DNA of 64,000 nucleotides, from the NCBI GenBank assembly GCA_020853795.1, contig JADYYF010000044.1, positions 1,058 through 65,057 of the forward strand. Direction: 5' to 3'. The stretch comes from Candidatus Zixiibacteriota bacterium. GTDB taxonomy: Bacteria; Zixibacteria; MSB-5A5; CAIYYT01. Below, piece by piece: positions 6,750-53,674 of the stretch (position 1 is the stretch's first letter; every line of letters begins with the position of its first letter). The notes under the pieces are model-generated. The model made no database searches. It had not been told where the DNA came from and was given only the letters and a program-made list of their open reading frames with translations. Both the position numbers and the translations under genes were made by a program.

Positions 6750-7714
6750 ACCCTCTGTCTTTTGTTCAACAGTGCCAGATCGGCATCGACCATCATCTCC
6801 ACAAGTTGGCGGAAAGAAACCTTGGGTTGCCATCCAAGTTTCGTACGGGCGTGGGTCGAGTCACCCAGCAGAATATCGACCTCTGCCGGCCGGACGAAGC
6901 GCTGGTCAACCTTGACATACTGCTTATAATCCAGATCGACATGGCCGAACGCGATCTCGCAGAACTCGCGCACCGAATGATTCTCATTGGAGGAGATGAC
7001 GAAATTGTCCGGTTCCGGCAACTGCAACATCCGCCACATGGCGTCAACGTAGTCGCCGGCATATCCCCAGTCGCGCTTGGCGTCAAGGTTGCCCAGGTAT
7101 AGCACGTCGGTCAACCCCAGCTTGATTGCGGCTGCGCCGTAAGAGATTTTGCGGGTCACAAATTCCAGTCCGCGCCGCGGTGATTCGTGGTTAAAGAGGA
7201 TGCCGGACGAGGCATGTATGCCATACGATTCCCGGTAGTTGACCGTGATGAAATGACCATACACCTTGGCGACACCATACGGCGAACGCGGGTAGAACGG
7301 CGTCTTTTCAGTCTGGGGAACCTCCTGCACCTTGCCGAACATCTCCGATGACGACGCCTGATAGAATTTGATTTTGCGGTCAACCTTGCGGATCGCTTCC
7401 AGCAGTTTGGTCACGCCGAGCGCGTCAAACTCGCCGGTGAGGACCGGCTGCGACCATGATGTCGGCACGAACGATTGCGCGGCCAGATTGTAGACCTCGG
7501 CCGGGCGCAGCTCTTCGATCAGTCCTAGCATTGACATCTGGTCGAACAGGTCGGCCTGCACCAGATGAATGCGACCCTTGATGTGATTGATCCGCTCGAA
7601 ATTCTCGGTGGAGGATCGGCGCACCATGCCGAAAACATCGTAGCCCTTTTCGAGCAGCAACTCGGCGAGGTACGAGCCGTCTTGGCCGGTCACTCCGGTA
7701 ATTAATGCACGCAT
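6746..7714 (-). CDS. gmd: GDP-mannose 4,6-dehydratase
   Basis: [64 protein letters not shown]. Confidence 0.95.
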
Positions 7715-39443: not shown

Positions 39444-40379
39444 CTACACCATGTAGCGAATCACCATCTTCCAGTCGTCAGGATCTTTCAGGTGTACCGC
39501 CCCCAGTTCGTTTGTTGCCGCCCCGTCCAGATTGGGGTTGAAGCAGGTGAATAGCGACTTGCCCTGCTTCAACGTCTCCCTGATCGCGCTGGCCGTGCCG
39601 CCGGTTCCGGAAGTGATCTCGACGACTATCACCGAACGGGCCAGGCCGACGATGATGCGATTGCGCGACAGCAACCGGCCGACATCAACTGCACTCTCCG
39701 GCGGATACTCCGAACAAATCAAGCCGTTAGTGACAATGTTGTCGGCCAGACTCTGATGCTCCGGCGGATAAATGTCTTCAATCCCGCATCCCAGGACGGC
39801 AATGGTCTTGCCTTCGGACTTGAGCGCCCCCAGATGCGCTGCCGCATCGATGCCGCGCGCCAAACCCGACACGACGACCGTGCCGGTCTCGGCGATGAGC
39901 GAGCCGAGCCGGACGCCTTCGGCAATCGCCTCTGCCGAAGCCTCGTGGCTGCCGACGATGGCCACGCAATTGTCACGGCAGACTTCCAGGCTGCCGCGAA
40001 AATAGAGCAACGGCGGCGGATCGTTGATCTCCAGCAGCGCCGGCGGATACGTGCTGCCGACAACTGTCGTCAGGTAGATTTCGTTGTCGGCGTAGTCGGC
40101 GAGCCGGTGCCGGATCAAGTCGGAATTGTCGATCGACAGCCGGATCAAGTCCTCCTTTTCCGGCGTCATCCGCGGCAAGTCGGCGATCTCGCCCGGCGCG
40201 CTCGCAAAGATGTTCTCAACCGTATCGAAGCGCGTAATCAACTGCTGCAGCGTGCGCGGACCTACGTTCGCATACTCGCGCAATGCGACGATCGCAATGT
40301 CAGTGTCGCTGTATTCCATCGGCCTCATCGACTCTACCTCGGACGCAAGGTAGCCGTGGTTTCGTGCCGCGTCAAGCAT
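39444..40379 (-). CDS. dprA: DNA-processing protein DprA/Smf (no obvious C-terminal domain)
   Basis: LLEINDPPPLLYFRG, VAIVGS, VSGLARGIDAAAH, IAVLGCG, SEYPP, RNRII. Confidence 0.88.
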   Translation of the reverse strand: MLDAARNHGYLASEVESMRPMEYSDTDIAIVALREYANVGPRTLQQLITRFDTVENIFASAPGEIADLPRMTPEKEDLIRLSIDNSDLIRHRLADYADNEIYLTTVVGSTYPPALLEINDPPPLLYFRGSLEVCRDNCVAIVGSHEASAEAIAEGVRLGSLIAETGTVVVSGLARGIDAAAHLGALKSEGKTIAVLGCGIEDIYPPEHQSLADNIVTNGLICSEYPPESAVDVGRLLSRNRIIVGLARSVIVVEITSGTGGTASAIRETLKQGKSLFTCFNPNLDGAATNELGAVHLKDPDDWKMVIRYMV

Positions 40380-40445
40380 TCATCGCAAACCCCTCGCGGT
40401 GAAAAGGGCTTGCCCGATCTAAACGTGGACGTTATTTATCGACTC

Positions 40446-41435
40446 ATGATAGCCGGAAACAACAGGGCCGGGAAGCGGTACGACGTCTACGGCATCGGCA
40501 ATGCGTTGGTGGACTACATCTCCTTTGTCGACGACCAGTTCCTGATTGACAAGAGCATTGGCAAGGGCATCATGACCTTGGTCGGCAAGTCGGCGCATGA
40601 AACGCTGGAAGGTCTGCGCGCCCACGAAGTCAAGCGCTGCAGCGGCGGTTCGGCGGCCAATACGATTACTGGTCTGGCCGCCTTGGGCGGTCGGGGTTGC
40701 TATTCCGGCAAAGTCGGAAATGACGAACTCGGCCGATTCTATCGCGAGGACCTGACTCAGGCCGGTATTGACTTTTACGTCGAGCCCGACACGCTGCCGA
40801 CCGGGTCGTGCGTCAGCTTCGTGACTCCGGACGCCGAGCGCTCGATGCTGACCTTCCTCGGCGCATCGACTTATCTCACTGATGCGGACATTCACCTGGA
40901 GGCGCTTGCGCAGTCGCAATTCCTCTACCTCGAGGGCTATCTCTGGGATTCGCCCAAAGCGCGTAGTGCGGCGGTCCGGGCGTTGGACGCGGCCAAACGT
41001 TCCGATGTCCAGATCGCCTTCTCCTTCTCAGATGCCTGGCTGGTGGGGCGCTTTCGCGACGATTTCGTACGCTTGATTGGAGAATACGTCGACGTGCTGT
41101 TTCTGAACGCGCGTGAATCGGAGGAGATCACCGGATTTCAGGATCCGCAGATGGCGGCACGGCAGATCGCCTCGCGCGTACCCTCGATTTGCCTGACCTG
41201 CGGCGCTTCCGGCGCGATTACGGTTGCCGACGGCCATCTGCGAATGACGCCGGCCCTGCCGGTGACCAAAGTCGTCGACACGACTGGCGCCGGTGATCTC
41301 TATGCGGCAGGAGTACTGCGAGGATTGACTTCGGGGTTTGATTTAGTCACCTCATCAATGATTGGCGCACGGGCGGCGGCCGCGATTGTGGCCAAAGTCG
41401 GGGCGCGTCTCGATCGGGACGATCTTCGCGGTTAG
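40446..41435 (+). CDS. PfkB-family carbohydrate/adenosine kinase
   Basis: GIGNALVD, GGSAANT, LYLEGYLWD, VDTTGAGDLYAAG; true start ATG 40446, not the track start 39756. Confidence 0.9.
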   Translation: MIAGNNRAGKRYDVYGIGNALVDYISFVDDQFLIDKSIGKGIMTLVGKSAHETLEGLRAHEVKRCSGGSAANTITGLAALGGRGCYSGKVGNDELGRFYREDLTQAGIDFYVEPDTLPTGSCVSFVTPDAERSMLTFLGASTYLTDADIHLEALAQSQFLYLEGYLWDSPKARSAAVRALDAAKRSDVQIAFSFSDAWLVGRFRDDFVRLIGEYVDVLFLNARESEEITGFQDPQMAARQIASRVPSICLTCGASGAITVADGHLRMTPALPVTKVVDTTGAGDLYAAGVLRGLTSGFDLVTSSMIGARAAAAIVAKVGARLDRDDLRG

Positions 41436-41439
41436 TCCT

Positions 41440-42276
41440 TCAATTTCCCATTACAACGTAGGACAAACACGCTCCAGTCGGTACTTCCTCTTCCCCTTGC
41501 AGCGACATTGGCACGATGCGCTTCCAGCCGCGACGACGGCCGGCGTAGGTTAGCGCCAGCCAGGCGGCGGAGCCGGGGAAGGCGAAGTGCGCGAGCCGGT
41601 CTCGCAGTACGGCAAAATCAAGACCGGCAAAGGCTGCCTCGACCCTCTGCCATCGCGCTTGCTGTTCGCCGTCGGCCAGGTCGATATCAATCTGCGTGCA
41701 CGATACAATCAGGCCGTTTCCCAATGACGGGTGGGCCAACACCTCGCCGATGCCCGTGGCGAGCTCGGCATCATCGATCCCGGCTACAATCGGAATCAAC
41801 CGAAAATCGCCGATCAGTTTCTGCAGCCACGGCAACATCGATTCGATGACAAATTCCGCTTGCCGGCCGCCCGTGTGCCCGCGCGCCGACATAACGACGC
41901 GAGGATGCAATTCGGAAAGGGACTTGGCCAACTCCAAGTCCAGGAACACTCGACCCAGCGGCGTCTCGTAAGCGCTGCCATGAAAAATCGACGCATGGTC
42001 AAACATGACCTCCTGCGCACTGGCGACGATCACGACCGTCGGATAGCGATGGCGATTGAGTGCACGCAGGGCGCCGATCCCCGGTCCCGCGACCAGCCGA
42101 GCCGGCGCAAATGGCGTCACAATCGCCCGCACCTCGCCCTTCGCCGACTGCGGTCGCCCGGAGGCCGCAATCCGTTGCTCCACTAATTCACTCAACTCCA
42201 GCGGGTCGGCGGGATAAAGCTTGCCGGCATAGGCCATCCGCCGGACTTCATTCGGTTTCTGCTCGTGGACTTCCAT
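41440..42276 (-). CDS. Memo-like (AmmeMemoRadiSam protein B) homolog with degenerate metal site
   Basis: RRMAYAGKLYP, YETPLGRV, IESMLPWLQ, LIPIVAG align with Memo motifs, but the conserved His positions are absent. Confidence 0.7.
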   Translation of the reverse strand: MEVHEQKPNEVRRMAYAGKLYPADPLELSELVEQRIAASGRPQSAKGEVRAIVTPFAPARLVAGPGIGALRALNRHRYPTVVIVASAQEVMFDHASIFHGSAYETPLGRVFLDLELAKSLSELHPRVVMSARGHTGGRQAEFVIESMLPWLQKLIGDFRLIPIVAGIDDAELATGIGEVLAHPSLGNGLIVSCTQIDIDLADGEQQARWQRVEAAFAGLDFAVLRDRLAHFAFPGSAAWLALTYAGRRRGWKRIVPMSLQGEEEVPTGACLSYVVMGN

Positions 42277-42450
42277 GGGTGCCCCAGAATACTCATCCGG
42301 GCGCGACGAAGCAAGTTGAGAGTTGCCGCTGCTGCACCGAAGCGACTGCTCAAGACTCCCCGGATTCAGCTTGTACCAGACAAAAGCTATCTTCTGAGCC
42401 GGACTGCAATGTCAGCGCCGCACCATCTTGTTGTCGTTCGGTGAATTTCC

Positions 42451-42479
42451 TTGACAAGCGTGCCGGCGTGTGGTATAGA
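42451..42479 (+). promoter_or_regulatory. tRNA promoter TTGACA-N17-TATAGA with TG extension
   Basis: TTGACA 42451-42456, TATAGA 42474-42479, tRNA starts 10 nt later. Confidence 0.75.
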
Positions 42480-42488
42480 GGAACCGAT

Positions 42489-42562
<74 letters not shown>

Positions 42563-42798
42563 TTTTATCAAACTCGTCTCCCCTGGGTATCCCATCCAAG
42601 TTCAGCTTAGACGGTTTCCTTGGCTCTTCACTTGAGCCTGAGGACTCGAACTCCCGCCGCCTAAGTAATCGGGCATCTCCCGACTCGCCTTCGCGAACGA
42701 CAGCGCCAGACCTGAGCCGCGCTTCTGAGGTGAGTCAGTGTCAACTCAGAATTAGCAAACTATGACAATAATTCTTTGAGTTCGACTTCAGAAAATAC

Positions 42799-42827
42799 TT
42801 GACTCAAAAGAGCGTGTTATGTAGACT
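42799..42827 (+). promoter_or_regulatory. sigma70-type promoter TTGACT-N17-TAGACT for the RiPP cluster
   Basis: TTGACT 42799-42804, 17-nt spacer, TAGACT 42822-42827. Confidence 0.65.
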
Positions 42828-43043
42828 AATGTATCGAAAAGTCCAGATTTGGAGCCGGTTGACAACGGCTTCTGAGTGAATCTGTTTCTCTGGATCACAG
42901 GGACGTCCTCGAACTCCGACCTGCAGTCAATAATCTACTAGTGGAGCGGGAGGTGTCCATAACTGACGTTGGCGTATCATGCATTATGATACGATGGGCC
43001 TGGTCCCATAGGTCACTACTAACCCACTACAGGAGGATTTGCA

Positions 43044-43157
43044 ATGATCTATTTGATCGATCCGCAGAATCCAGGCATCGAAGTCTGCATCTTCAAGTTC
43101 CTCTGTCCGAAGGATAGGGTCGTTCCGTGCTACGGAATCGATCCCGTCGAGATTTGA
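43044..43157 (+). CDS. RiPP precursor peptide, 37 aa: MIYLIDPQNPGIEVCIFKFLCPKDRVVPCYGIDPVEI (absent from the ORF track)
   Basis: Hand translation; AGGAGG RBS at 43031-43036, 7 nt before ATG; three Cys and a C-Y-G motif; followed by a hairpin and two radical SAM genes. Confidence 0.88.
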   Translation: MIYLIDPQNPGIEVCIFKFLCPKDRVVPCYGIDPVEI

Positions 43158-43169
43158 GGTGACGGATCC

Positions 43170-43196
43170 GCAGAGAGGGGCATCGCCCCTCTCTGC
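43170..43196 (+). terminator. 12-bp hairpin after the precursor (mRNA stabiliser or leaky terminator)
   Basis: GCAGAGAGGGGC-ATC-GCCCCTCTCTGC followed by CTTT. Confidence 0.75.
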
Positions 43197-43425
43197 CTTT
43201 GGTTGAGTTCCGGCAGATTCCTCCTCCCAGGAACAGCACAATTTCACTGACGCATTTCTTGCGAGCGAGGTGGTGCCACCAAGTTGAAATGGACACAGAC
43301 GACCCGAGTTCTCCTGACTTTGATCTTGCCGGATCCGTGCGAAGCTTTGAGGCGGTGGAGACAGTCGGGAATAAGCAAGATTCGATAGTGCGTTAGGTGC
43401 GTTTGCTGGTAGCGAGCATGACACG

Positions 43426-44775
43426 ATGAGCAGAGTATCACGCTACAATCATTTTCAACAATGGCAAGGCGGTTATCGGATCGCCTTCAATGCCTTCACC
43501 GGTGCCCTCGCCCTGATGACCGAGGACAACTTTCAAACATATCAGAAACTGGCGGCCAAGCTCTCCAACGGTAATTCTGCGCCAATCCTGACCGATGCGG
43601 AACGGGAGCTGCTTCAACAACTCGAGCATGGCCGCTTCGTTCATCCTGACGACTGTGACGAGTTGCAAGCACTCAAGTTCACCCACGGCAGCGCCCGCTT
43701 TGATCGCACCGCACTGGCCTTGATCGTTGCTCCCACTTTAGCCTGCAACATGGCCTGTCCCTACTGCTTCGAGAACAACAAGCGCGGCAAGATGACGCCG
43801 GAGATCGCCGATCAGATCGTCGGATTCGTCAGCCGCCAAGCCAAGACCCTGACTCAGCTTGATCTCACCTGGTACGGCGGCGAACCGCTGCTGGCCCTCG
43901 ATGTCATCGAAATCCTGTCGCGCCGCCTTATCGGAATGGCAAATGATGAGTCCTTCACTTATCGAGCCTCGATCATCACCAATGGCTATCTCCTGGATCG
44001 CGACAGCGTCGACACGTTGGTCGACCTGAAAGTCGGCGTGTGCCAGGTGACGCTGGACGGCCCCGCGCGGTTGCACAATATTCGGCGCCCGCTCAAGAAC
44101 GGAAGAGACAGCTTCCAGACGATCGTTGACAATCTCAAGTACGCTGCCGGCAGGTTGGTCGTCTCCGTGCGAGTGAACATCGACAAGAGCTTCAGTTCCG
44201 CCGACGTTGCCGAGTTGCTGACGGAACTAAAGGCCGCAGGCCTGCAGCAGCGCGTATCGGTCAACTTCGGAATGGTTGAGCCGTCGTCCGCCACTTGCGC
44301 CGCCGTCGCCGAAGCCTGCTATGAAATTGCCGATTTCTCGCAGGTGGAAATCGGATTTTATCGGCAATTGCTCGACAACGGCTATGGCGTTGAGAAGCTG
44401 CCCAGCCCCTGTGCGGTCTTCTGCATGGCGCAATTGGTCAACGCCTTTTTGGTCGATCCGGACGGGAATCTCTATCGCTGCTGGAACTACGTCGGCGATC
44501 CGGCGAAGACCATGGGGCATATCCGCGACAAGATTGACTATCAGAATGCGAATTTCGTCAAGCTCTTCGCTATTGATCCGTTTGTTGATCCGCTCTGTCG
44601 TGACTGCGACATTCTGCCGGTTTGCCTGGGGGGCTGCCCATCCAATCGCGCCGACCGCGGCCTGACCGGCGAGCAGGCCTGCCAGAGCTGGAAACACAAT
44701 CTTTCTCCGATGCTGGAAATTATTGCGCGCTCGCGAAGCCAGCGGGCGGCATCTACACCCAAGGAGCAATCATGA
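43426..44775 (+). CDS. Radical SAM/SPASM peptide maturase with N-terminal RRE-like extension
   Basis: About 95-aa N-terminal extension (SRYNHF...IAFNAFTGALALM); CNMACPYC; WYGGEPLL; TLDGP...HNIRR; SPASM cysteines CAVFC, YRCW, CRDCDILPVCLGGC. Confidence 0.92.
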   Translation: MSRVSRYNHFQQWQGGYRIAFNAFTGALALMTEDNFQTYQKLAAKLSNGNSAPILTDAERELLQQLEHGRFVHPDDCDELQALKFTHGSARFDRTALALIVAPTLACNMACPYCFENNKRGKMTPEIADQIVGFVSRQAKTLTQLDLTWYGGEPLLALDVIEILSRRLIGMANDESFTYRASIITNGYLLDRDSVDTLVDLKVGVCQVTLDGPARLHNIRRPLKNGRDSFQTIVDNLKYAAGRLVVSVRVNIDKSFSSADVAELLTELKAAGLQQRVSVNFGMVEPSSATCAAVAEACYEIADFSQVEIGFYRQLLDNGYGVEKLPSPCAVFCMAQLVNAFLVDPDGNLYRCWNYVGDPAKTMGHIRDKIDYQNANFVKLFAIDPFVDPLCRDCDILPVCLGGCPSNRADRGLTGEQACQSWKHNLSPMLEIIARSRSQRAASTPKEQS

Positions 44776-45884
44776 CCGACTTCAAGTTCTATCCACGTTC
44801 CGTAGTCTGGGAGACTACTTTTGCCTGCAACATGCGGTGTCTGCACTGCGGCACCGCTGCCGGCAAGAAACGGCCCGACGAACTGACCACCGCCGAAGCC
44901 CTGAACATGATCGACGAGCTGGCAGCGCTGGGAGCCGAAGACATCACGCTCTCCGGCGGCGAACCGCTCCTTCGGGATGACTGGCTGATCCTGGCCAAGC
45001 GAATCCGCGAGCGCGGCATGAAAGCCCTGATGATATCGAACGGCCTGGCCTTCTCCGATCAGGTGGTGCAGGATATCATGAGTGTGCCGTTGAACAAGGT
45101 CGGAGTGAGCTTTGACGGTACCGAGACGACGCACAACTACATCCGCCAGCGCGACGACAGTTTCAGCGGCGCGTTGAACGCCATGCGCCTGATGCGTAAG
45201 CACGGTTTCCGCCAGTTCTGCGCCGTGAGCCAGATCTCGAATATCAATATTGACGAGATGGATGCCATCCGCCGCATCCTGATCGATGTCGGCTGTCCTC
45301 AATGGCGAGTCCAGCTCTGCACCTCGACCGGCCGCATGCGGGACAACCGTGACTTGATCCTCTCGCTCGACAATTATCCGCGCCTGATTGACAAGCTGAT
45401 TAAACTGCAGGAACATGATGACGAAATCGTCATTGATGTCGGTGAGAACATTGGCTACTACGGTCAGGCCGGCAATCAACTGCGCCAGGGCAACCCGTAC
45501 TGGGGCTGCTATGCGGGCACCCGGATTCTCGGTATCGAATCCAACGGCGCCATCAAGGGATGTCTGTCGATGCCGGAGGAATTTGTCGAGGGCAACCTCC
45601 GCGAGAAGTCGCTGGCCGAAATCTGGAATAACCCGGACGGCTTTGCTTACAACCGCCAGTTTACGCGCGACACGGCGAGCGGCGAGTGCCATGACTGCCG
45701 GTACCTGCCGCTGTGCCGCGGCGGTTGTGCGACAACCTCGGTCTCGGCCACCGGCTGCCGCGCCGACAATCCCTACTGCATTTACCGAATGGAGCAGCAG
45801 CAAGGATTCGCAACGCCGCCGGACAGCGAGTATGTGGCCGCATTGCTGGCCAAATTCCCGCCGGTGGCGAAGGAAAGCCGGTAG
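44772..45884 (+). CDS. Second radical SAM/SPASM enzyme, resembling PlpX-type spliceases
   Basis: ATG 44772 (AAGGAG RBS, ATGA overlap); VWETTFACNMRCLHCG; GENIGYYG; GCYAG; LGIESNGAIKGCLSM; CHDCRYLPLCRGGC; DNPYCIYR; no N-terminal RRE. Confidence 0.85.
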   Translation: MTDFKFYPRSVVWETTFACNMRCLHCGTAAGKKRPDELTTAEALNMIDELAALGAEDITLSGGEPLLRDDWLILAKRIRERGMKALMISNGLAFSDQVVQDIMSVPLNKVGVSFDGTETTHNYIRQRDDSFSGALNAMRLMRKHGFRQFCAVSQISNINIDEMDAIRRILIDVGCPQWRVQLCTSTGRMRDNRDLILSLDNYPRLIDKLIKLQEHDDEIVIDVGENIGYYGQAGNQLRQGNPYWGCYAGTRILGIESNGAIKGCLSMPEEFVEGNLREKSLAEIWNNPDGFAYNRQFTRDTASGECHDCRYLPLCRGGCATTSVSATGCRADNPYCIYRMEQQQGFATPPDSEYVAALLAKFPPVAKESR

Positions 45885-45928: not shown

Positions 45929-47689
45929 ATGTCATTCAGCACCACCAAGGCACGACGGCTGTGGCCGTTTCTCAAGCCGTATTGGCGCCACGAACTGGTC
46001 ACCCTGATCGTCATGCTGGCGATTACGGCGCTGATCCTCGCCGTGCCGTTGACGGTGCGGTATCTCGTCGACGTCCTCATACCCGAATTGATTCGATCCG
46101 GTGCCGCCGGCGCTATCGACCTCTCGCCGGTCGTCTGGTTCGGACTCGCCTTGGTCGCCATCTACCTGTTTCAGGTTGTCCTGACCGGGGTGCGCGACTA
46201 CTTCGTTGGTTTCATCGGGGCCCGCATCATTGCCGACATGCGCTCCCACCTGTTTGCGCATCTCGAACGGCTGTCACTGAGATTCTTCCAGACACACAAG
46301 GTCGGTGAGGTGATGTCGCGATTCCTCGCCGATGTCTCGCGCATTCAGGATCTCCTCTCGTCCACGCTGCTTGTGATTCTGAACAACTTCCTGCTCTTGT
46401 TCGGCGTGCTCGCCTATCTGCTCTATGACAACTGGCAACTGACTCTGATTGCAATCATTCCCGTGCCGGTGACGATTCTCGTGACCGGCGTCCTGAGCAA
46501 ACACATTCACTCGACGGCGCGCGGACTTCAGGCGACTGTAGCGACGCTGTCGGCCGCCATCCAGGAACTCCTGGTCGGACTCAAGATCGTCAAAGCCTTT
46601 GGCCGGGAGGATGCCGAGAACAAGAAAGTCGATGGGATCATGTCCGGCCTGACCGGATTCTACGTCAAGTTCAGCGTGCTCCGCTCGGTCGCCGGCAACG
46701 GCATTCAGTTTGTCAATGCGCTCGGTCCGATCATCGTTCTCTGCGCCGGTGCCTACCTGGTCGCCGTCGGCACGATGCAGCTCGGACAGCTCTTCGCCTT
46801 CTACATGTATCTGTCGCTGCTGTATAGCCCGGTCCAGAGTCTGGCCGGTTCGCGCATCGAGGTCGCCGCCGCCATGGCCTCCGTCGAGCGCATCTTTGAG
46901 TATCTCGACCTGCCCCCCGCAGTCGAGGAGGATCCCGCGCCGGTCCGGATTGGCAAGATCCGCGGCGATATCAAGTTCACCGAAGTGAATTTCTCCTACG
47001 GCGACTCCAATTTTCGCATCGACAACCTGAATCTCCACATCCCCGCCGGCGAAACCCTGGCGTTGGTGGGACCGTCCGGCTCCGGCAAGACGACAATTAT
47101 CAACTTGATCATGCGTTTCTACGACCCTGATTCCGGCATCATTGCCGTCGATGGCGTGGACCTGCGCCGGCTCTCCCTACAGACTCTGCGCGACAATATT
47201 GCGCTCGTGGATCAGGATCCGCTCCTGTTTAACCTGACGATCGGGGAGAATATCGCCTATTCCGATCCTGCCGCGACCAGCGAGCAAATCCAACGGGCGG
47301 CGCGGATCGCCAACATTCACGATTTCATCTCCGGTCTGCCGCACGGTTACGACAGCATGGTCGGCGAGCGCGGGGTAACCTTGTCCGGCGGCGAGAAACA
47401 GCGGATTTGTCTGGCGCGCGCCTTGTTGAAGGATCCGCCGATCCTGATCCTCGACGAGGCGACCAGCGCCCTGGATTCAATCTCGGAGCAACTGATTCAG
47501 GATGCGCTCGACAAGGTGCTGGTGGGGAAGACTGCCATCATCATTGCGCACCGCCTGGCGACTGTGCAGCGTGCCGACTGGATCATCGCCCTCGACGGCG
47601 GCCGCATCGTCGCCCAAGGAACGCACTCCGAGCTCCTGGGCTCGTCGGCACTCTATCAGGAGTTGTCGCACAAGCAATTGCGGGCGTAG
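45929..47689 (+). CDS. ABC exporter (TMD plus NBD), no C39 peptidase domain
   Basis: GPSGSGKTT, LSGGEKQR, ILDEATSALD, IIAHRL; ATG 45929. Confidence 0.93.
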   Translation: MSFSTTKARRLWPFLKPYWRHELVTLIVMLAITALILAVPLTVRYLVDVLIPELIRSGAAGAIDLSPVVWFGLALVAIYLFQVVLTGVRDYFVGFIGARIIADMRSHLFAHLERLSLRFFQTHKVGEVMSRFLADVSRIQDLLSSTLLVILNNFLLLFGVLAYLLYDNWQLTLIAIIPVPVTILVTGVLSKHIHSTARGLQATVATLSAAIQELLVGLKIVKAFGREDAENKKVDGIMSGLTGFYVKFSVLRSVAGNGIQFVNALGPIIVLCAGAYLVAVGTMQLGQLFAFYMYLSLLYSPVQSLAGSRIEVAAAMASVERIFEYLDLPPAVEEDPAPVRIGKIRGDIKFTEVNFSYGDSNFRIDNLNLHIPAGETLALVGPSGSGKTTIINLIMRFYDPDSGIIAVDGVDLRRLSLQTLRDNIALVDQDPLLFNLTIGENIAYSDPAATSEQIQRAARIANIHDFISGLPHGYDSMVGERGVTLSGGEKQRICLARALLKDPPILILDEATSALDSISEQLIQDALDKVLVGKTAIIIAHRLATVQRADWIIALDGGRIVAQGTHSELLGSSALYQELSHKQLRA

Positions 47690-47858: not shown

Positions 47859-48836
47859 TTGGACGTCAGGCGCTTTGACAGCACGTTGCATGCAATCGGC
47901 AACACGCCGCTGGTCAAGCTAACCCGCATCACGGCAGACCTGCAGTGCGCGGTCTATGCCAAGTTGGAGTTTCTAAACCCGTCCGGCAGTATCAAAGACC
48001 GCGTCGCCCGGCACATGATTCTCAAGGCCGAACGGGACGGCCGCATTAAGCCCGGTGACACGATCATCGAAAATTCTTCCGGCAACATGGCCATGAGTCT
48101 CGCCTTGATCGCCATCCAGCGCGGTTACAAACTGAAAGTCGTGGTGCGCGATACGATCAGCCCGGAGAAACTCAGTCAATTGCTGGCGCTTGGTGTTGAT
48201 GTGATTAAGGCCGACACCTCGTTACCGCCGGAGTCGCCCGATTCCTACAACAATATCACGCCGCGACTCGCGCGCCAGCTCACCAACGGCTATTTCCCCG
48301 ACCAGCACAACAATCGCGAAAACAATGAGGCACATTACCTCACAACCGGTCCGGAGATTTGGGAACAGATGGAAGGCCGGATTGACTATCTGGTGGCCGG
48401 GATGGGGACCGGCGGCACGATCGGCGGCGTCGGGCGCTATCTGAAGGAGAAAGACCCGAAGATTCAGATTGTCGCGGTCGATGTGGTTGGCTCAATCTAC
48501 ACCGAGTACTTTCGCACCAGGAAGCTGATCAAGCCGTCACCTTATCTGATGGAAGGACTCGGCGATGAGTTCATCGTGGGTTGCGCCGATTTCACGGTTA
48601 TCGACGACATGGTGCAGGTCGCTGATGCTGACGCGTTTCATACCGCGCGTCGACTGGCCCGACAGGAGGGCATTCTGGCCGGCGGATCCAGCGGTGCCGC
48701 GATCTGGGCCGTGCTGAAGATTGCCGGAGCGCTCGCCGCATCGGCCCGGATGGTGACTATCTTTCCGGACGGCGCTTCCCGATATCTGAGTACGATCTAC
48801 AATGACGACTGGCTGCGAGCCAAGGGGATGATGTAG
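47859..48836 (+). CDS. PLP-dependent cysteine synthase / cystathionine beta-synthase-fold enzyme (TTG start)
   Basis: IGNTPLV, NPSGSIKDR (PLP Lys), GMGTGGTIGG, MEGLG, LAGGSSGA; AAGGAG RBS. Confidence 0.88.
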   Translation: MDVRRFDSTLHAIGNTPLVKLTRITADLQCAVYAKLEFLNPSGSIKDRVARHMILKAERDGRIKPGDTIIENSSGNMAMSLALIAIQRGYKLKVVVRDTISPEKLSQLLALGVDVIKADTSLPPESPDSYNNITPRLARQLTNGYFPDQHNNRENNEAHYLTTGPEIWEQMEGRIDYLVAGMGTGGTIGGVGRYLKEKDPKIQIVAVDVVGSIYTEYFRTRKLIKPSPYLMEGLGDEFIVGCADFTVIDDMVQVADADAFHTARRLARQEGILAGGSSGAAIWAVLKIAGALAASARMVTIFPDGASRYLSTIYNDDWLRAKGMM

Positions 48837-48881: not shown

Positions 48882-51800
48882 CTAACGCAGCAGCACCATC
48901 GTCCGTCCGACCCGCGTCGATGAAGTCCTTAAGACGTAGTAGTAGACACCTGATGCTACCGGCAGCTGCCGATCGTCACGACCGTTCCACGTCAGTTGAG
49001 TCTGACCTGCCGGACGCGTCCCCTCCGATAACAGCCGGACTTGCTGACCGCGGATATTGTACACCGTCAACGAAATCCAGTCCGCTTTTGGCAAGTTGAA
49101 TTCGATAACCGTGGTCGGATTGAATGGGTTGGGACGATTTTGGGACAGTTCGACTGCATCAGGAAGAACCGCAGCTGGCGCGCCCGCCATCGCATCGAGA
49201 ATTCCGATCAGTTCAGTGCGCCCGCGGCTTTCCGGGCAATCAATCAGCGCCCGGCGGATCTTGCTCCAATCGAATTCACCCGCGTGCCCGGCAAGAGCGC
49301 CGTCGTCGCCGTCCTCACCGGCGCGCCCCATGCCGGCAATCGTCTTCAGCCAGTTGTCTGCGACTCCGCAGATGTCTTCGGCTTCCACGGCGCCGTTACC
49401 GTCGGCGTCGGCGTAGATCGCGGCGTAGGGCGACCAAGCATTTTCGCCCAGCACAACGCGCGCCAGGTGGCGCGACCAAAGCCAATCACCGTCGCCTCGT
49501 GGCGGACCCTGGATGTCGAAGTACCGTCCAATCGGCAAGACATCGCGTTCATCAACGATGCCATTATGGTCAGTATCACCCGGCCAAACTGCCGCTCCAG
49601 TGACAAACGTTCGCACCGAGTCGCGACTGCGCAATGGGATGCCGTCGGAAGTCGTCAGGCCCGGACTGATGTGGATGATCACCGAGTCAAGTTCGAGAAA
49701 TTCGTCTCCCGCAGCCGGGGCGACGATCAGCGTAACTCGATCATTCGCCGTCACGACGTCTGTGGTACAGCCGGCGCCTTTGCGACTCTCGACCACAACC
49801 GCCTCAAGTAGGGTCGCGGTGCTGATCAGGCCGTTAAATGGCAGGCTGATCACTTCATTGATCTGAACGCTCCCCAGGATCGGCGGTACTGTCAATGCCA
49901 GCGACTTGCCCGCCACTAGGGTCACACGCGCATTGCCGCCATTTGAGAGCAAGTCAATGTGGGCCCAATGGTATCCCGAGGCCAACTGTGAACTATCGAC
50001 CGCAACTGCAACCTTGATGCTCCCGCCGACCGCGATGGTCCCATTTCCGGGGCTGAGTGCGAGCCACGGAACATCGGCGCTTCCGGACCATTCGAGTTGC
50101 GCTTCGCCGTGATTCTCGATAGACAGCTCCGCTGCAACAGCGTCGATCACGAACCGGACGGTATCGGGCTGGACGGCGATAATCGCTCCGGGCCGGACCC
50201 CGATCGAGAGTGAGTTTGTATCCGCCAGAAATCCGTCACTGGCAATCAGGCTGACGGCATAGGTGCCGACTTGGTCAAGTTCCGGCGTGAAGGCAATCTC
50301 GCCGCTTCCGCTGCCGCGGTCTGTAAAGGTTGCGTGCGGCGGGACTCCCAGCGCGCTCAGGGTCAGGGGGTCGGAGTCGGGATCACTCGCCTCCACCGCG
50401 TGAATCAGTGTCTGACCGACGTGCATCACCGTATCCCGAACCGTGACCCATGCCGGCCGGCGATTGACATTGGTCACCGTAATTGTCACGCCGGCACTGA
50501 CAGAGAATACGCCGTCGGTTGCCGCAAACGTGACCACATGCACACCGCTTTGCGCATATGACGGCGTCCAATTGAACTGCCCGCTGCCGTCGCCGTGGTC
50601 GCTGAACGTAGCGCCTGGCGGCAGCCCCGAGGCGCTTAACGTTGGAATCGTGCCGTCCGGGTCGGTTGCCGTGACTTCAATCTCGATCGGCTGCTGCTCG
50701 GCAATTTCGCGGTCTGCGATCGGCGCAATCACCGGCGGACGATTCGTGCCGGTCACAACAATCGCAACGTCGGCGGTGTCGCTCAATGTGCCGTCGCTGG
50801 CCAAGAACCGCACCGCGTATTGTCCCGCCTGGCCAAAATCTGGCGCAAAGGTAAAGCGACCTCGTCCTCCACCAAGATCAGTAAACGTGGCGTTCTGCAT
50901 CAGGTTCACAGCGGTGAGCCTCGGCGCTGTGCCGTCCGGATCGCTGGCGCTGATCTCCAGCACGAGCGTCTCACCCTCGGCAACCGTATCATCCGCAATC
51001 GTCGCAAAGACCGGTGGACGGTTGACGTTGGTCACTGTTATCTGCACCGACATCGTATCGGCAAGTTCACCATCGTTGGCAAAGAAGGTCACGGTGTAGG
51101 TGCCTGCCTGTTCGTAAGAGGGGGTGAAGGTCAGACTGCCGCTGCCGTCGCCGTGATCAGCGAATGTCCCGTTCACCGGCAGCGCTCCGGTACTCAGATC
51201 GGGGATATCCTCATCCGGATCGTCAGCCGCCACCGCGAGAATCAGCGTTTGACTCTCCAGGATCGTCGTATCTGCCCGCTCGACGAACACCGGCGGCCGG
51301 TTGAGCGTGCAACCGACTGGATAGACACCCATCCCGCCACAGGTCGTATGTGCCGCCGCACACGGCGAAGTCGCCGCAATCGTGAAGTTACTGCCGGCAG
51401 CATTGCAGAAGAGTGGATCGGCGGCAATGTTCCCACGCAAACCGAGTTGTCGCGACAAGACCCCCACCCAGTTGCCGCCGGCATTGCCGTATATGTCGGT
51501 GCACGTGATCGTCATGCCGATGATGCCGTCGGCATCATCGATGCCCGGGCCGGTCGTGGAATTGGCGATGATGCAGTTCGCCATCATGATCGGACCGACA
51601 TAGTTCCCCTCAACGTTCGGGTCAATGCCGGTCTTGTTGTTCACAAATGTCGAGTGATTGATGCTCAATGTTCCGACCTGCGCCAGATAGAGCCCGCCGC
51701 CGGTCGATGCCGTGTTGCCGGAGAAGAAGCACGAATCGATGCTGACGGTGTTCTCCTCCGACCAATAGATCGCGATCGCCCCGCCGTTCGTCTGCGCGCG

Positions 51801-53504
51801 GTTACCGACGAGATCGCATTTGGTCACGGTCAGATTGTTGCCATAACTCTCGATCCCGTTCCCGGTGCCGTTGCTGATGGCACAGCCGGTAACCGTCAAG
51901 ACTGACTGCAGCGCGCGAATGGCACCGCTTTCTCCGAGAGCATTGGTTACTGACGACCCGAACTGGCAGCCGCTGATTGTTGCGGTAGTGCCGCTCCACA
52001 TGCGGAGTCCGTACCCGGAATTGCCAGTGATGCGGCCGCCGGTGATGGTGATATTCGCGCTCGTCTCCAGCTGCACGCCGGCACTGTCGTTGTTCTGAAT
52101 GACACAGTTCTCGATCCGGGCCTGCGAGCCGCTGCGGCAATAGATCCCCCGGCCGGTGCTGCCCTCGATTATGCAATTGCGGATCGTTGGCGAAGCCGTC
52201 CAGCAGAAGACAGCGGCACCATTGCCGCCGCTGGCGTTGCGGATCGTGAATCCCTGCAGCACGACTCCGCCAGGGGCGTAGTAATCATAATTGAAGCCGG
52301 GATAAAGCCCCTGACAATCGATGATCGTTGTTGCCGGACCCGCCGATGAGACAATACTCACCGGGCGTTCACCGAAGCTGCCGATGTTGCAGTTGGAGGC
52401 ACCGGTATAGGTCCCGGGCGCCACGCGCACGGTTCCCGGCGAGCGCAAACCGAACGCGGTATACGCGGCACTGATCGTCGCAAACTCCGAGGGCACATCG
52501 TGAGTCCCGGTGATGTCGAAGCGGTTTGCCGCAGAGAACGCAGAACCGATCCCCGTGTAGTTCGCCTGCACCCGCCAGTAATAATGCGTATTGAGGTAGC
52601 CGCCGGAATTTGGCAACGGCGTGGTGAGCGTGTAGGAACCCTCTGTGATTCCGGTATAGGTACGGGGTGTGGGAAAGCTCGCACTCGTGTCCACTTGGAG
52701 CGTGTAGTTGGCGCCGTCGTCCGACCAGGTGAAGGTGGGTAAGTTGTTCTCAATCGTGGCCAGATTGGCCGGCGAAATCAGCGTCGGCGTTACCACCGTG
52801 AATTTGATGCGGCGCACCAAGTCGACGTATATCGCGCCCTTGCCGCTGTAGGAGCCGATCAGTACGGAGACGGCGGCAAGATCCGAAAACGCGCCCGCTG
52901 TCGGTTCCTGAAGCGAAATCGTCGTCCAGGCGTTGGTGGGCAACGCACTCGTCCAGCCGACATAACTGAACACGGTATCGCCCGGCTTCATGTAGCCGAT
53001 CATCGCGTATGCCGTTGCGGAAAAGGACTTGTAGATGCGCGCTTCAATTCGACTGGCGCCATCCCAGGTGGCTGGGACCGGGGACTGGATCGACTTGATC
53101 TGCCAGCTATAGTGGCAGCTGTCCGTATAGTAACCGTCAAAGGCACAGGTCATTTGCGCCGATCCGGTTCCGCCAAAGCTGCTCCAAGCCAAGGCGAATG
53201 GCGATCCGACTGCTTTCATTCGCGTGCGCTCGACGCAGCGAACATCGGGGTAGTACTCCTGCACGGTATCGGCGGTGTGGAAAAAAGTCCAGCCGTCGAG
53301 ACTGCTGGTGAAGTTGTAGGCAAGGGTATCGTACCCTTGTGGCTCAAGCAGTTGCTCCCGTGCGAATACTGGTCCTTCTGGCTCCGTTTCAGTCGGTCGT
53401 CCAGCCAATGAAGATGGTGTCGAACCCTGAGCGAGCGAAGATAGCAGAAGACTCATCAGGCCGAGGAGAGCTGCCCGGACGGAATAAGGGACAAGCGAAC
53501 TCAT
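48882..53504 (-). CDS. Large secreted modular protein: beta-sandwich, FN3-like, right-handed beta-helix, four Ig/cadherin-like repeats, BACON-like, dockerin-like, FlgD/T9SS-like C-terminal domain
   Basis: Signal peptide; parallel beta-helix repeats; WPGDTDHNGIVD and DADGNGAVEAED; LSQNRPNPFNPTT...SGVYYYVL; ATG 53504 with GAGG RBS. Confidence 0.8.
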   Translation of the reverse strand: MSSLVPYSVRAALLGLMSLLLSSLAQGSTPSSLAGRPTETEPEGPVFAREQLLEPQGYDTLAYNFTSSLDGWTFFHTADTVQEYYPDVRCVERTRMKAVGSPFALAWSSFGGTGSAQMTCAFDGYYTDSCHYSWQIKSIQSPVPATWDGASRIEARIYKSFSATAYAMIGYMKPGDTVFSYVGWTSALPTNAWTTISLQEPTAGAFSDLAAVSVLIGSYSGKGAIYVDLVRRIKFTVVTPTLISPANLATIENNLPTFTWSDDGANYTLQVDTSASFPTPRTYTGITEGSYTLTTPLPNSGGYLNTHYYWRVQANYTGIGSAFSAANRFDITGTHDVPSEFATISAAYTAFGLRSPGTVRVAPGTYTGASNCNIGSFGERPVSIVSSAGPATTIIDCQGLYPGFNYDYYAPGGVVLQGFTIRNASGGNGAAVFCWTASPTIRNCIIEGSTGRGIYCRSGSQARIENCVIQNNDSAGVQLETSANITITGGRITGNSGYGLRMWSGTTATISGCQFGSSVTNALGESGAIRALQSVLTVTGCAISNGTGNGIESYGNNLTVTKCDLVGNRAQTNGGAIAIYWSEENTVSIDSCFFSGNTASTGGGLYLAQVGTLSINHSTFVNNKTGIDPNVEGNYVGPIMMANCIIANSTTGPGIDDADGIIGMTITCTDIYGNAGGNWVGVLSRQLGLRGNIAADPLFCNAAGSNFTIAATSPCAAAHTTCGGMGVYPVGCTLNRPPVFVERADTTILESQTLILAVAADDPDEDIPDLSTGALPVNGTFADHGDGSGSLTFTPSYEQAGTYTVTFFANDGELADTMSVQITVTNVNRPPVFATIADDTVAEGETLVLEISASDPDGTAPRLTAVNLMQNATFTDLGGGRGRFTFAPDFGQAGQYAVRFLASDGTLSDTADVAIVVTGTNRPPVIAPIADREIAEQQPIEIEVTATDPDGTIPTLSASGLPPGATFSDHGDGSGQFNWTPSYAQSGVHVVTFAATDGVFSVSAGVTITVTNVNRRPAWVTVRDTVMHVGQTLIHAVEASDPDSDPLTLSALGVPPHATFTDRGSGSGEIAFTPELDQVGTYAVSLIASDGFLADTNSLSIGVRPGAIIAVQPDTVRFVIDAVAAELSIENHGEAQLEWSGSADVPWLALSPGNGTIAVGGSIKVAVAVDSSQLASGYHWAHIDLLSNGGNARVTLVAGKSLALTVPPILGSVQINEVISLPFNGLISTATLLEAVVVESRKGAGCTTDVVTANDRVTLIVAPAAGDEFLELDSVIIHISPGLTTSDGIPLRSRDSVRTFVTGAAVWPGDTDHNGIVDERDVLPIGRYFDIQGPPRGDGDWLWSRHLARVVLGENAWSPYAAIYADADGNGAVEAEDICGVADNWLKTIAGMGRAGEDGDDGALAGHAGEFDWSKIRRALIDCPESRGRTELIGILDAMAGAPAAVLPDAVELSQNRPNPFNPTTVIEFNLPKADWISLTVYNIRGQQVRLLSEGTRPAGQTQLTWNGRDDRQLPVASGVYYYVLRTSSTRVGRTMVLLR
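50195..51302 (-). repeat. Four tandem 93-aa (279-nt) Ig-like repeats within the large protein
   Basis: Repeats begin with N-R-P/R-P at 51302, 51023, 50744 and 50465 (exact 279-nt period); DPD and DG motifs recur. Confidence 0.85.
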
Positions 53505-53674
53505 CAAAAACCTCAAGAGAATAGTTGTTGTGGAGAGATGTCGTGTCCGTGGATGACCTGATCCATTTTAAGGTAAATCATTGCCATAAAATAGCAAGCG
53601 AGATTAATGTCGCGCCCAAACGTTTGTTGGAGCCTTCATGTTCGGCCATCTAATGTCGATAAACCAATAAACGA

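Follow-up and report, generated by a model that had tools for sequence, protein, structure and literature searches.

An unannotated ORF of 37 codons (nt 43044-43157, + strand) lies in the window, which here means the whole 64,000 nt stretch of Candidatus Zixiibacteriota DNA that was analysed; judged by its conservation, it is a genuine and widely conserved precursor peptide gene. The encoded peptide is most likely a RiPP precursor on which two distinct radical SAM/SPASM enzymes act, one (rSAM1) forming Cys thioethers and the other (rSAM2) splicing the backbone, which would give a hybrid RiPP; a probability of about 0.6 is assigned to this reading. By analogy with characterised systems, the N-terminal tag MIYLIDP probably docks on the thioether-forming enzyme. 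The conserved Pro-x-Tyr-Gly close to the C-terminus is best read, from the pattern of conserved residues, as the target of the second, tyramine-excising splicease and not as a second docking site.

The precursor gene and its family

The features given for the ORF in a preliminary description were all found in the sequence: the reading frame and its translation (MIYLIDPQNPGIEVCIFKFLCPKDRVVPCYGIDPVEI), an AGGAGG ribosome-binding site (43031-43036, +) with a 7-nt spacer to the ATG, three cysteine codons (C15, 43086-88; C21, 43104-06; C29, 43128-30), and the two pentapeptides Y3-L-I-D-P7 and Y30-G-I-D-P34. A Gly-Gly site is absent from the peptide, as had also been stated. Codons I2-Y-L-I-D-P7 (43047-43064, +) form the N-terminal signature of the family, a putative leader or RRE-docking strand by its conservation and by analogy with the CteA-CteB complex. 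The core from C15 to C21, C-I-F-K-F-L-C (43086-43106, +), carries conserved Cys that are putative thioether donors. Further downstream is the X-Tyr-Gly motif P28-C29-Y30-G31-I32 (43125-43139, +), a putative rSAM2 splice site given its conservation and the XYG peptides found beside rSAM2 relatives.

A consensus scan gave a tentative, weak sigma-70-like promoter match (CTGACG-16-TATGAT; 42963-42990, +) 54 nt 5' of the precursor ATG, in a phylum whose own promoter rules may differ. Beginning 13 bases past the precursor stop, and preceding the enzyme genes, is a GC-rich hairpin (43170-43206, +) with a 12-bp stem and a 3-nt loop, followed by a T-rich tail, CTTTGGTT. Its fold energy (-31.5 kcal/mol, z -3.1) and its recurrence in relatives point to an intrinsic terminator or attenuator; a comparable GC-rich hairpin follows the last precursor gene in most related loci, and compensatory changes were seen among the window, L002 and L048. 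An Rfam search of 42200-43500 returned tRNA-Met only; the long 5' region gave no match to a riboswitch or to any other known RNA. This tRNA-Met (CAT) gene (42488-42563, +) is about 480 nt 5' of the precursor, between a Memo-like gene and the cluster; inserted islands are often flanked by tRNA genes.

With rSAM1 (43426-44775) as the probe, 45 genome loci and 64 metagenome loci were fetched. Every locus that has an rSAM1 at least 48% identical, together with upstream DNA, carries between one and seven small ORFs of the same type just 5' of it. The preliminary description had looked to tblastn for conserved homologues of the peptide, and precursor ORFs are indeed conserved upstream of those in-family rSAM1 genes that have upstream DNA; its proposal that the ORF is the precursor for the downstream rSAM gene is supported by the homologous ORFs, by synteny and by conservation. 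Between the window and its relative L047 (91% rSAM1 identity), the ORF shows eight synonymous and three non-synonymous codon changes. On contig L049 (65-1450; also seen in L080), seven precursor genes stand in tandem 5' of one rSAM1-rSAM2 pair; their Cys-rich cores have diversified, and the seventh of these copies (MIFLIEPVSATKNRCPSLWSCGERLCPILCRTLI) does not carry P-x-Y-G.

A protein search with the 37-aa peptide and seven in-frame upstream codons found one 95% relative only, and the peptide had no match at E<=0.01 in NCBIfam or Pfam. A profile made from 30 members, searched against a set of 5.8 billion proteins, retrieved 264 protein clusters at E<=1. None of the 120 relatives listed from this search has a Pfam domain, and any names they carry are 'hypothetical protein'. 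When four of the peptides on long contigs were followed to their surroundings, three lay directly 5' of an rSAM1-rSAM2(-B12 rSAM)-ABC series. The fourth (P0211; L123 6001-6135) is an orphan on a 104-kb contig, with no radical SAM gene within 6 kb, indicating that precursors can be encoded apart from the enzymes.

The ORF might instead have arisen by chance, or regulate the rSAM operon as an upstream ORF or attenuation leader, which would be in keeping with its short length, its lack of annotation and the terminator-like hairpin that follows it. Either alternative is very improbable against the conservation of the peptide sequence with an excess of synonymous changes, the presence of up to seven tandem diversified copies, the 264 clusters with invariant residues, and the strong ribosome-binding site.

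Motif statistics were compiled from 142 unique family members (140 for most C-terminal and first-Cys counts), which are 31-46 aa in length. The N-terminal MIYLIDP, which had been expected to be conserved, is the most conserved part of the peptide: P7 is present in 100%, L4 in 98% and Y3 in 91% (F in 8%), while position 2 is I in 84%, position 5 is I in 82% or V in 18%, and position 6 is D in 86%, E in 10% or N in 4%. The first Cys occurs 7-9 residues past P7 in 133/140 members, and at position 15 exactly in 91. Cores are rich in Cys and Lys, with one to five Cys ahead of YG. A C-x3-C arrangement accounts for 209 of the 288 spacings, the window peptide belonging to a C-x5-C minority; it shares with 83/142 members a Lys at +3 of the first Cys.

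The expected conservation of P-x-Y-G was likewise confirmed. P-[L/C/M]-Y-G-[V/I] is found in 140 of the 142 members, the Y-G pair being present in 140/142 and the P at -2 in 138/140, with L (108), C (18) or M (14) at the X position (-1) and V (77) or I (61) at +2. The three cysteines of the preliminary description have a mixed status, as C15 is invariant and C21 near-invariant across the family, while C29 stands at the X position, where 77% of members, the 91% relative among them, have Leu. The tail past YG[V/I] is 2-12 residues long; its commonest form is YGVP(P/T)xx[I/V/M], and YGVPTGTV, YGIII and YGINTAK are also common. A tail Pro is frequent (121/140) and not universal. Trimming by a prolyl peptidase at P7 and at the tail Pro was considered and left as speculation, the cluster having no protease. 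For annotation, the family signature can be written as M-[IV]-[YF]-L-[IV]-[DE]-P ... C ... P-x-Y-G-[VI].

The C-terminal YGIDP had been suggested to be a second copy of an RRE recognition sequence YLIDP, acting as an echo, a follower motif or a second docking site. Both pentapeptides are present in the window peptide, the N-terminal motif is highly conserved, and YG[IV]DP occurs in 32/140 members drawn from several subclades. These 32 make up only 23% of the family, and the other 77% have no D-P after YG[V/I], YGVP(P/T) being the commonest sequence there. Moreover, the conserved C-terminal sites (P at -2, X at -1 and G at +1) have no match in the N-terminal motif, and the C-terminal motif co-occurs with a second enzyme, of the XYG clade, that lacks an RRE. 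A second docking site is therefore not supported and is considered improbable. From the family alignment, Y-x-I-D-P at both ends is a trait of a minority and not of the family, and the striking 'echo' is not the functional feature.

Two radical SAM enzymes in one operon

The conserved operon order is precursor(s), hairpin, rSAM1, rSAM2 and ABC exporter. Wherever the DNA of an in-family locus extends far enough (at least 16 loci), rSAM1 is followed by rSAM2, and an ABC exporter is found 3' of rSAM2 in most related loci. In the window, the exporter (45929-47689, +; about 586 aa, with a possible alternative start at TTG 45902) has permease and ATPase portions and is MsbA-like; Pfam detects ABC_membrane and ABC_tran only, with no C39 peptidase domain. 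In some clusters, rSAM2 and the ABC gene are separated by a third radical SAM gene, of the B12-binding kind (L110 7486-8919; L121 9136-10497; L122 9013-10467), which is probably a C-methyltransferase.

Three further genes were considered as cluster members and set aside, each being conserved only in the 95% relative: a PLP enzyme (47859-48836), a 65-aa ORF (43199-43396) and a Memo-like gene (41440-42276, -). The 65-aa ORF has no Pfam match, and inspection by eye found no similar ORF in the corresponding gap of other loci. The Memo-like gene is of the AmmeMemoRadiSam protein B type, and a Memo+AMMECR1 gene is present 5 kb 5' of the cluster in L121 (1-802, -); the proximity of such genes to the two clusters could be coincidence or loose synteny. 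On the other side of the window cluster, and adjoining it only in the 95% relative, is a gene (48882-53516, -) for a 1543-aa protein with beta-helix, Big_9, cadherin-like, BACON and C-terminal FlgD-Ig domains, which mark it as a large surface or secreted protein. Within 39444-41435, a 559-aa PfkB ORF (+) and a DprA gene (-) have more than 600 nt in common. As the PfkB domain is restricted to residues 268-553, the true start of the kinase is probably far 3' of 39756.

rSAM1 (43426-44775, +; 449 aa) is a putative Cys cross-linking maturase, based on NCBIfam matches, an AF2 model, Foldseek comparison and invariant Cys columns. It comprises an RRE-like N-domain (approximately residues 8-91), a radical SAM core (C107-x3-C111-x2-C114) and a full SPASM domain, with all seven SPASM Cys invariant (C333-x13-G-x4-C352, C391-x2-C394-x5-C400-x3-C404, C419). 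In the AF2 model (58 homologues; pLDDT 87.4), the N-domain runs from beta1-3 to alpha1-3, which is the RRE topology, and Foldseek placed CteB (5WHY/5WGG) as the top match over the full length (E 2.5e-19). Both results uphold the earlier assignment of an RRE-like N-terminal domain to this protein. The alignment of CteB with rSAM1 begins at residue 97 in both proteins. The best NCBIfam matches are all maturases of Cys-rich peptides (Clo7bot, TIGR04463, CefB, geopeptide, PapB, SCIFF and QhpD), and rSAM1 scores under the curated cut-offs of all the named families (Clo7bot 344 vs 600, TIGR04463 288 vs 525, PapB 131 vs 340, SCIFF 94 vs 425). In L006, which comes from a MAG, the rSAM1 homologue looks frameshifted near its 3' end (7170-7350), the tblastn match being split over two frames; either the assembly is faulty here or the gene is a pseudogene.

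rSAM2 (44772-45884, +; 370 aa) is a radical SAM/SPASM protein with no N-terminal RRE, beginning straight at its CxxxCxxC motif, and is a putative splicease by its NCBIfam scores, sequence identities and position in an NJ tree. A comparison of 13 loci placed the true start at ATG 44772. The longer ORF of 420 aa (44622-45884) is 50 codons too long, and its 150-nt overlap with rSAM1, including the 'conservation' given by tblastn, is an alternative-frame artefact. The rSAM1 stop and rSAM2 start share the sequence ATGA (44772-44775), with AAGGAG located 6 nt upstream, which indicates that the two genes are translationally coupled.

The highest NCBIfam scores of rSAM2 are to TIGR03913 (GDL-motif peptide maturase; 251 bits) and TIGR04103 (nif11-class maturase 3; 245 bits), about 60 bits above the next family and well under the curated cut-offs of 592 and 725, respectively. 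It belongs to a separate subfamily, and its chemistry may differ. The best relatives in annotated plasmids (35-40% identity) are named for one or other of these two families or simply as 'radical SAM protein', and a Nostoc 'nif11-class rSAM maturase 3' is 37% identical over 342 aa; identities to MftC and others are 26-30%. In the NJ tree, rSAM2 and its orthologues group with TIGR04103/TIGR03913-type enzymes, with which they have the motif N-[IV]-G-Y-Y-G in common, and apart from MftC.

The neighbours of five annotated rSAM2 relatives were inspected, and an X-Tyr-Gly peptide adjoins all five. The Nostoc nif11-3 gene has a Nif11 precursor with the core RGSIALYGLPPELF on its 5' side and a 71-aa Y-like ORF on its 3' side, which is the A-X-Y layout of cyanobacterial spliceotide clusters. 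The GDL-type relatives, from Azospirillum, Burkholderia and Aureibacter, are preceded by DUF1843/1842 peptides with PYG or MYG. In the human gut species Agathobacter rectalis (NZ_CP143948.1), an unannotated 35-aa ORF (MFNLEELSLEFVKISELKTSKNLFGPVMYGTGVRM; L116, about 2790-2900) ending in ...GPVMYGTGVRM is followed closely by genes for a splicease-like radical SAM enzyme and an MFS transporter, and is likely to be an unannotated spliceotide precursor. PlpX is a member of a Nif11-associated SPASM subclass (PMC11002830). Both the name of the family TIGR04103 and the Nostoc locus suggest that TIGR04103 corresponds to the PlpX subclass (IPR026482).

The association between motif and enzyme is also apparent from the distant relatives of rSAM1 (28-34% identity, mostly Firmicutes). 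Those tested (L011-L016) do not have rSAM2, and P-X-Y-G-[V/I] is absent from all the Cys-rich upstream ORFs listed for the distant relatives, so the motif tracks rSAM2.

This association bears on the possibility that both enzymes install Cys thioethers, in the style of a two-enzyme sactipeptide, and that P-x-Y-G is only a structural or export motif. Two-rSAM thioether systems are known, such as thuricin CD (PMC12093266) and ruminococcin C (PMC8188230), and the precursor cores are Cys-rich with C-x3-C repeats. Nevertheless, the identity between rSAM1 and rSAM2 is only about 19%, the two belong to separate clades, the occurrence of YG follows that of rSAM2, and a member with a single Cys (L009b) keeps PLYG at a locus that keeps both enzymes, making a pair of thioether-forming enzymes a doubtful explanation at best.

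A stronger competitor, and still an unlikely one, is that rSAM2 makes a Tyr-centred cross-link with no excision, such as a three-residue cyclophane at Y-G-[V/I], a Cys-Tyr link or an MftC-like C-C bond. Triceptides have an aromatic-x-x pattern, which Y-G-[V/I] fits, and MftC, PqqE and SkfB are detectable relatives of rSAM2. In addition, [V/I] at +2 and P at -2 correspond to no known splicing requirement, and rSAM2 falls under the cut-offs of the splicease-type families. Against this, the nearest enzymes by score, by identity and in the tree are those of XYG-associated families and not MftC, while the cyclophane maturase models (YhhB, AmcB, GrrM) match rSAM1 weakly and are missing from the 25 top-scoring families listed for rSAM2. 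Excision of tyramine at the XYG site is preferred as the predicted activity of rSAM2.

A proposed two-enzyme pathway

From the conservation, synteny, domain architecture and clade membership described above, we infer the following pathway, in which each chemical step is a prediction. The precursor would be translated from its strong ribosome-binding site, with the hairpin past its stop codon restricting read-through into the enzyme genes, probably by attenuation. The binding of the CteA leader to CteB is established structural knowledge, and by the likeness of rSAM1 to CteB, together with the conservation of the strand, the docking site of I2-Y-L-I-D-P7 would be the RRE-like domain of rSAM1. 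Cys15, set at a fixed distance of 8 +/- 1 residues, would then be presented to the enzyme, which, by homology to maturases of the CteB, PapB and QhpD type, may link Cys15 and Cys21 to acceptor carbons as thioethers. The RRE-less rSAM2, coupled to rSAM1, would act as a splicease on P28-C29-Y30-G31-I32, excising tyramine at C29-Y30-G31. The product would be exported by the ABC transporter, with removal of the leader, if any, by an unlinked protease. The resulting ketoamide could make the product an inhibitor of Ser/Cys proteases, by analogy with characterised spliceotides only.

Spliceases excise tyramine at XYG, where the native X is Met or Leu (PMC11414181, PMC9811515, PMC11626197), and those characterised require either a Y protein, in type I, or a helical leader, in type II, as activator (PMC11414181). 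Non-cyanobacterial spliceotide systems have no Y protein, and spliceotide products inhibit Ser/Cys proteases (PMC11414181, PMC9811515, PMC11626197, PMC10849128, PMC11002830). Several observations sit less easily with the hybrid pathway. Both enzymes are well under the cut-offs of their nearest families. The precursor, at 37 aa, has no helical leader segment and no room for a helical activator of the sort found in known Y-less spliceases, and the locus has no conserved small ORF besides the precursor that could be Y-like. The X residue of the window peptide is Cys, for which no example was found in the literature searched; no conserved thioether acceptor residue is evident in the precursor family; and one family member, on L123, is the orphan mentioned above.

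The ATGA coupling of rSAM1 and rSAM2 suggested a tentative solution to the activator question, less probable than the two-enzyme pathway as such. The RRE of rSAM1 might bind the seven-residue tag and also serve in trans as the missing Y-protein/activator for the RRE-less rSAM2, so that one docking event would lead to a thioether-constrained peptide with a backbone alpha-ketoamide warhead. A minimal two-enzyme machine of this sort would stand for a hybrid RiPP class not characterised before and widespread in Zixibacteria and related uncultured phyla.

If the hybrid pathway is correct, two radical SAM chemistries, Cys cross-linking and backbone splicing to a ketoamide, act on a very small scaffold, which would bear on how spliceases are activated where there is no Y protein. 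The family numbers at least 264 protein clusters, most of them belonging to uncultured Zixibacteria, to Calditrichota or to related bacteria of sediment and groundwater. Since ketoamide spliceotides are potent inhibitors of Ser/Cys proteases (PMC11626197), counterparts constrained by a macrocycle would make attractive leads. The engineering of peptides and proteins would also gain a compact handle in the seven-residue leader combined with an X-Y-G tag of about five residues. For genome annotation, the family illustrates that gene callers with length cut-offs miss the key gene of the cluster.

Comparison with known systems

Spliceotides and CteB-like thioether RiPPs are each already known separately. 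A family that would combine them on a precursor of 31-46 aa with a seven-residue N-terminal tag is covered by no curated model. The literature searched does not mention it, nor does that literature contain anything relevant on YLIDP peptides or on radical SAM enzymes or ranthipeptides of Zixibacteria; an earlier bioinformatic listing elsewhere is possible. The bacteriocins with double-glycine leaders are set apart by the absence of GG from the peptide and of C39 from the ABC protein of about 586 aa.

Mycofactocin (MftA/MftB/MftC) offers a partial parallel to rSAM2, as MftC is a detectable SPASM relative whose target is a Tyr adjoining a small residue close to the C-terminus of the peptide. MftC, however, scores 142 bits against the 251 bits of the top family, there is no MftB at the locus, and the Tyr here is internal, with 2-12 residues past YG[V/I], whereas mycofactocin has a C-terminal Gly-Val-Tyr.

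For rSAM1, the best-scoring models over the full length, including the N-domain, are those of Clo7bot (TIGR04334 maturase) and TIGR04463, and the short, Cys-rich precursors of these relatives also begin with a hydrophobic strand (MEII...). Their loci differ in having no rSAM2, and their peptides have neither MIYLIDP nor P-x-Y-G. The ranthipeptides and SCIFF peptides (CteA-CteB; PapA-PapB, freyrasin) are similar in the RRE-rSAM-SPASM architecture of the maturase, CteB being the best structural match, and in having a Cys-rich precursor with a recognition strand at the extreme N-terminus and an ABC exporter in the operon. As in ranthipeptide and sactipeptide types, there is a maturase with an RRE, a CxxxCxxC motif and a seven-Cys SPASM domain, and putative Cys donors lie in the core. 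The present family departs from them in that it has no C-x3-D or SCIFF six-Cys pattern, in that rSAM1 falls far under the SCIFF and PapB cut-offs, and in having both a second, unrelated rSAM enzyme and an invariant XYG motif.

The spliceotides (PlpA/PlpX/PlpY of Pleurocapsa; RhaA/RhaX and RasA/RasX of Rheinheimera) differ from this family in their precursors, since a Nif11, NHLP or long helical leader is replaced here by a seven-residue tag on a Cys-rich peptide. They differ also in their enzymes, as the family always has an RRE-bearing, CteB-like rSAM that is translationally coupled to the splicease-like gene, rSAM2 is under the TIGR04103 and TIGR03913 cut-offs, and splicing is here only predicted. 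The likenesses are nonetheless several. X-Tyr-Gly is present in the precursor, with X being Leu, Met or Cys in this family; the SPASM enzyme encoded next to it, rSAM2, shares 35-40% identity with members of the PlpX-type and GDL-type families; a Y protein is absent, as in all non-cyanobacterial types; and the family tail P-L-Y-G-V-P-P-x-x-I resembles the Nostoc core A-L-Y-G-L-P-P-E-L-F.
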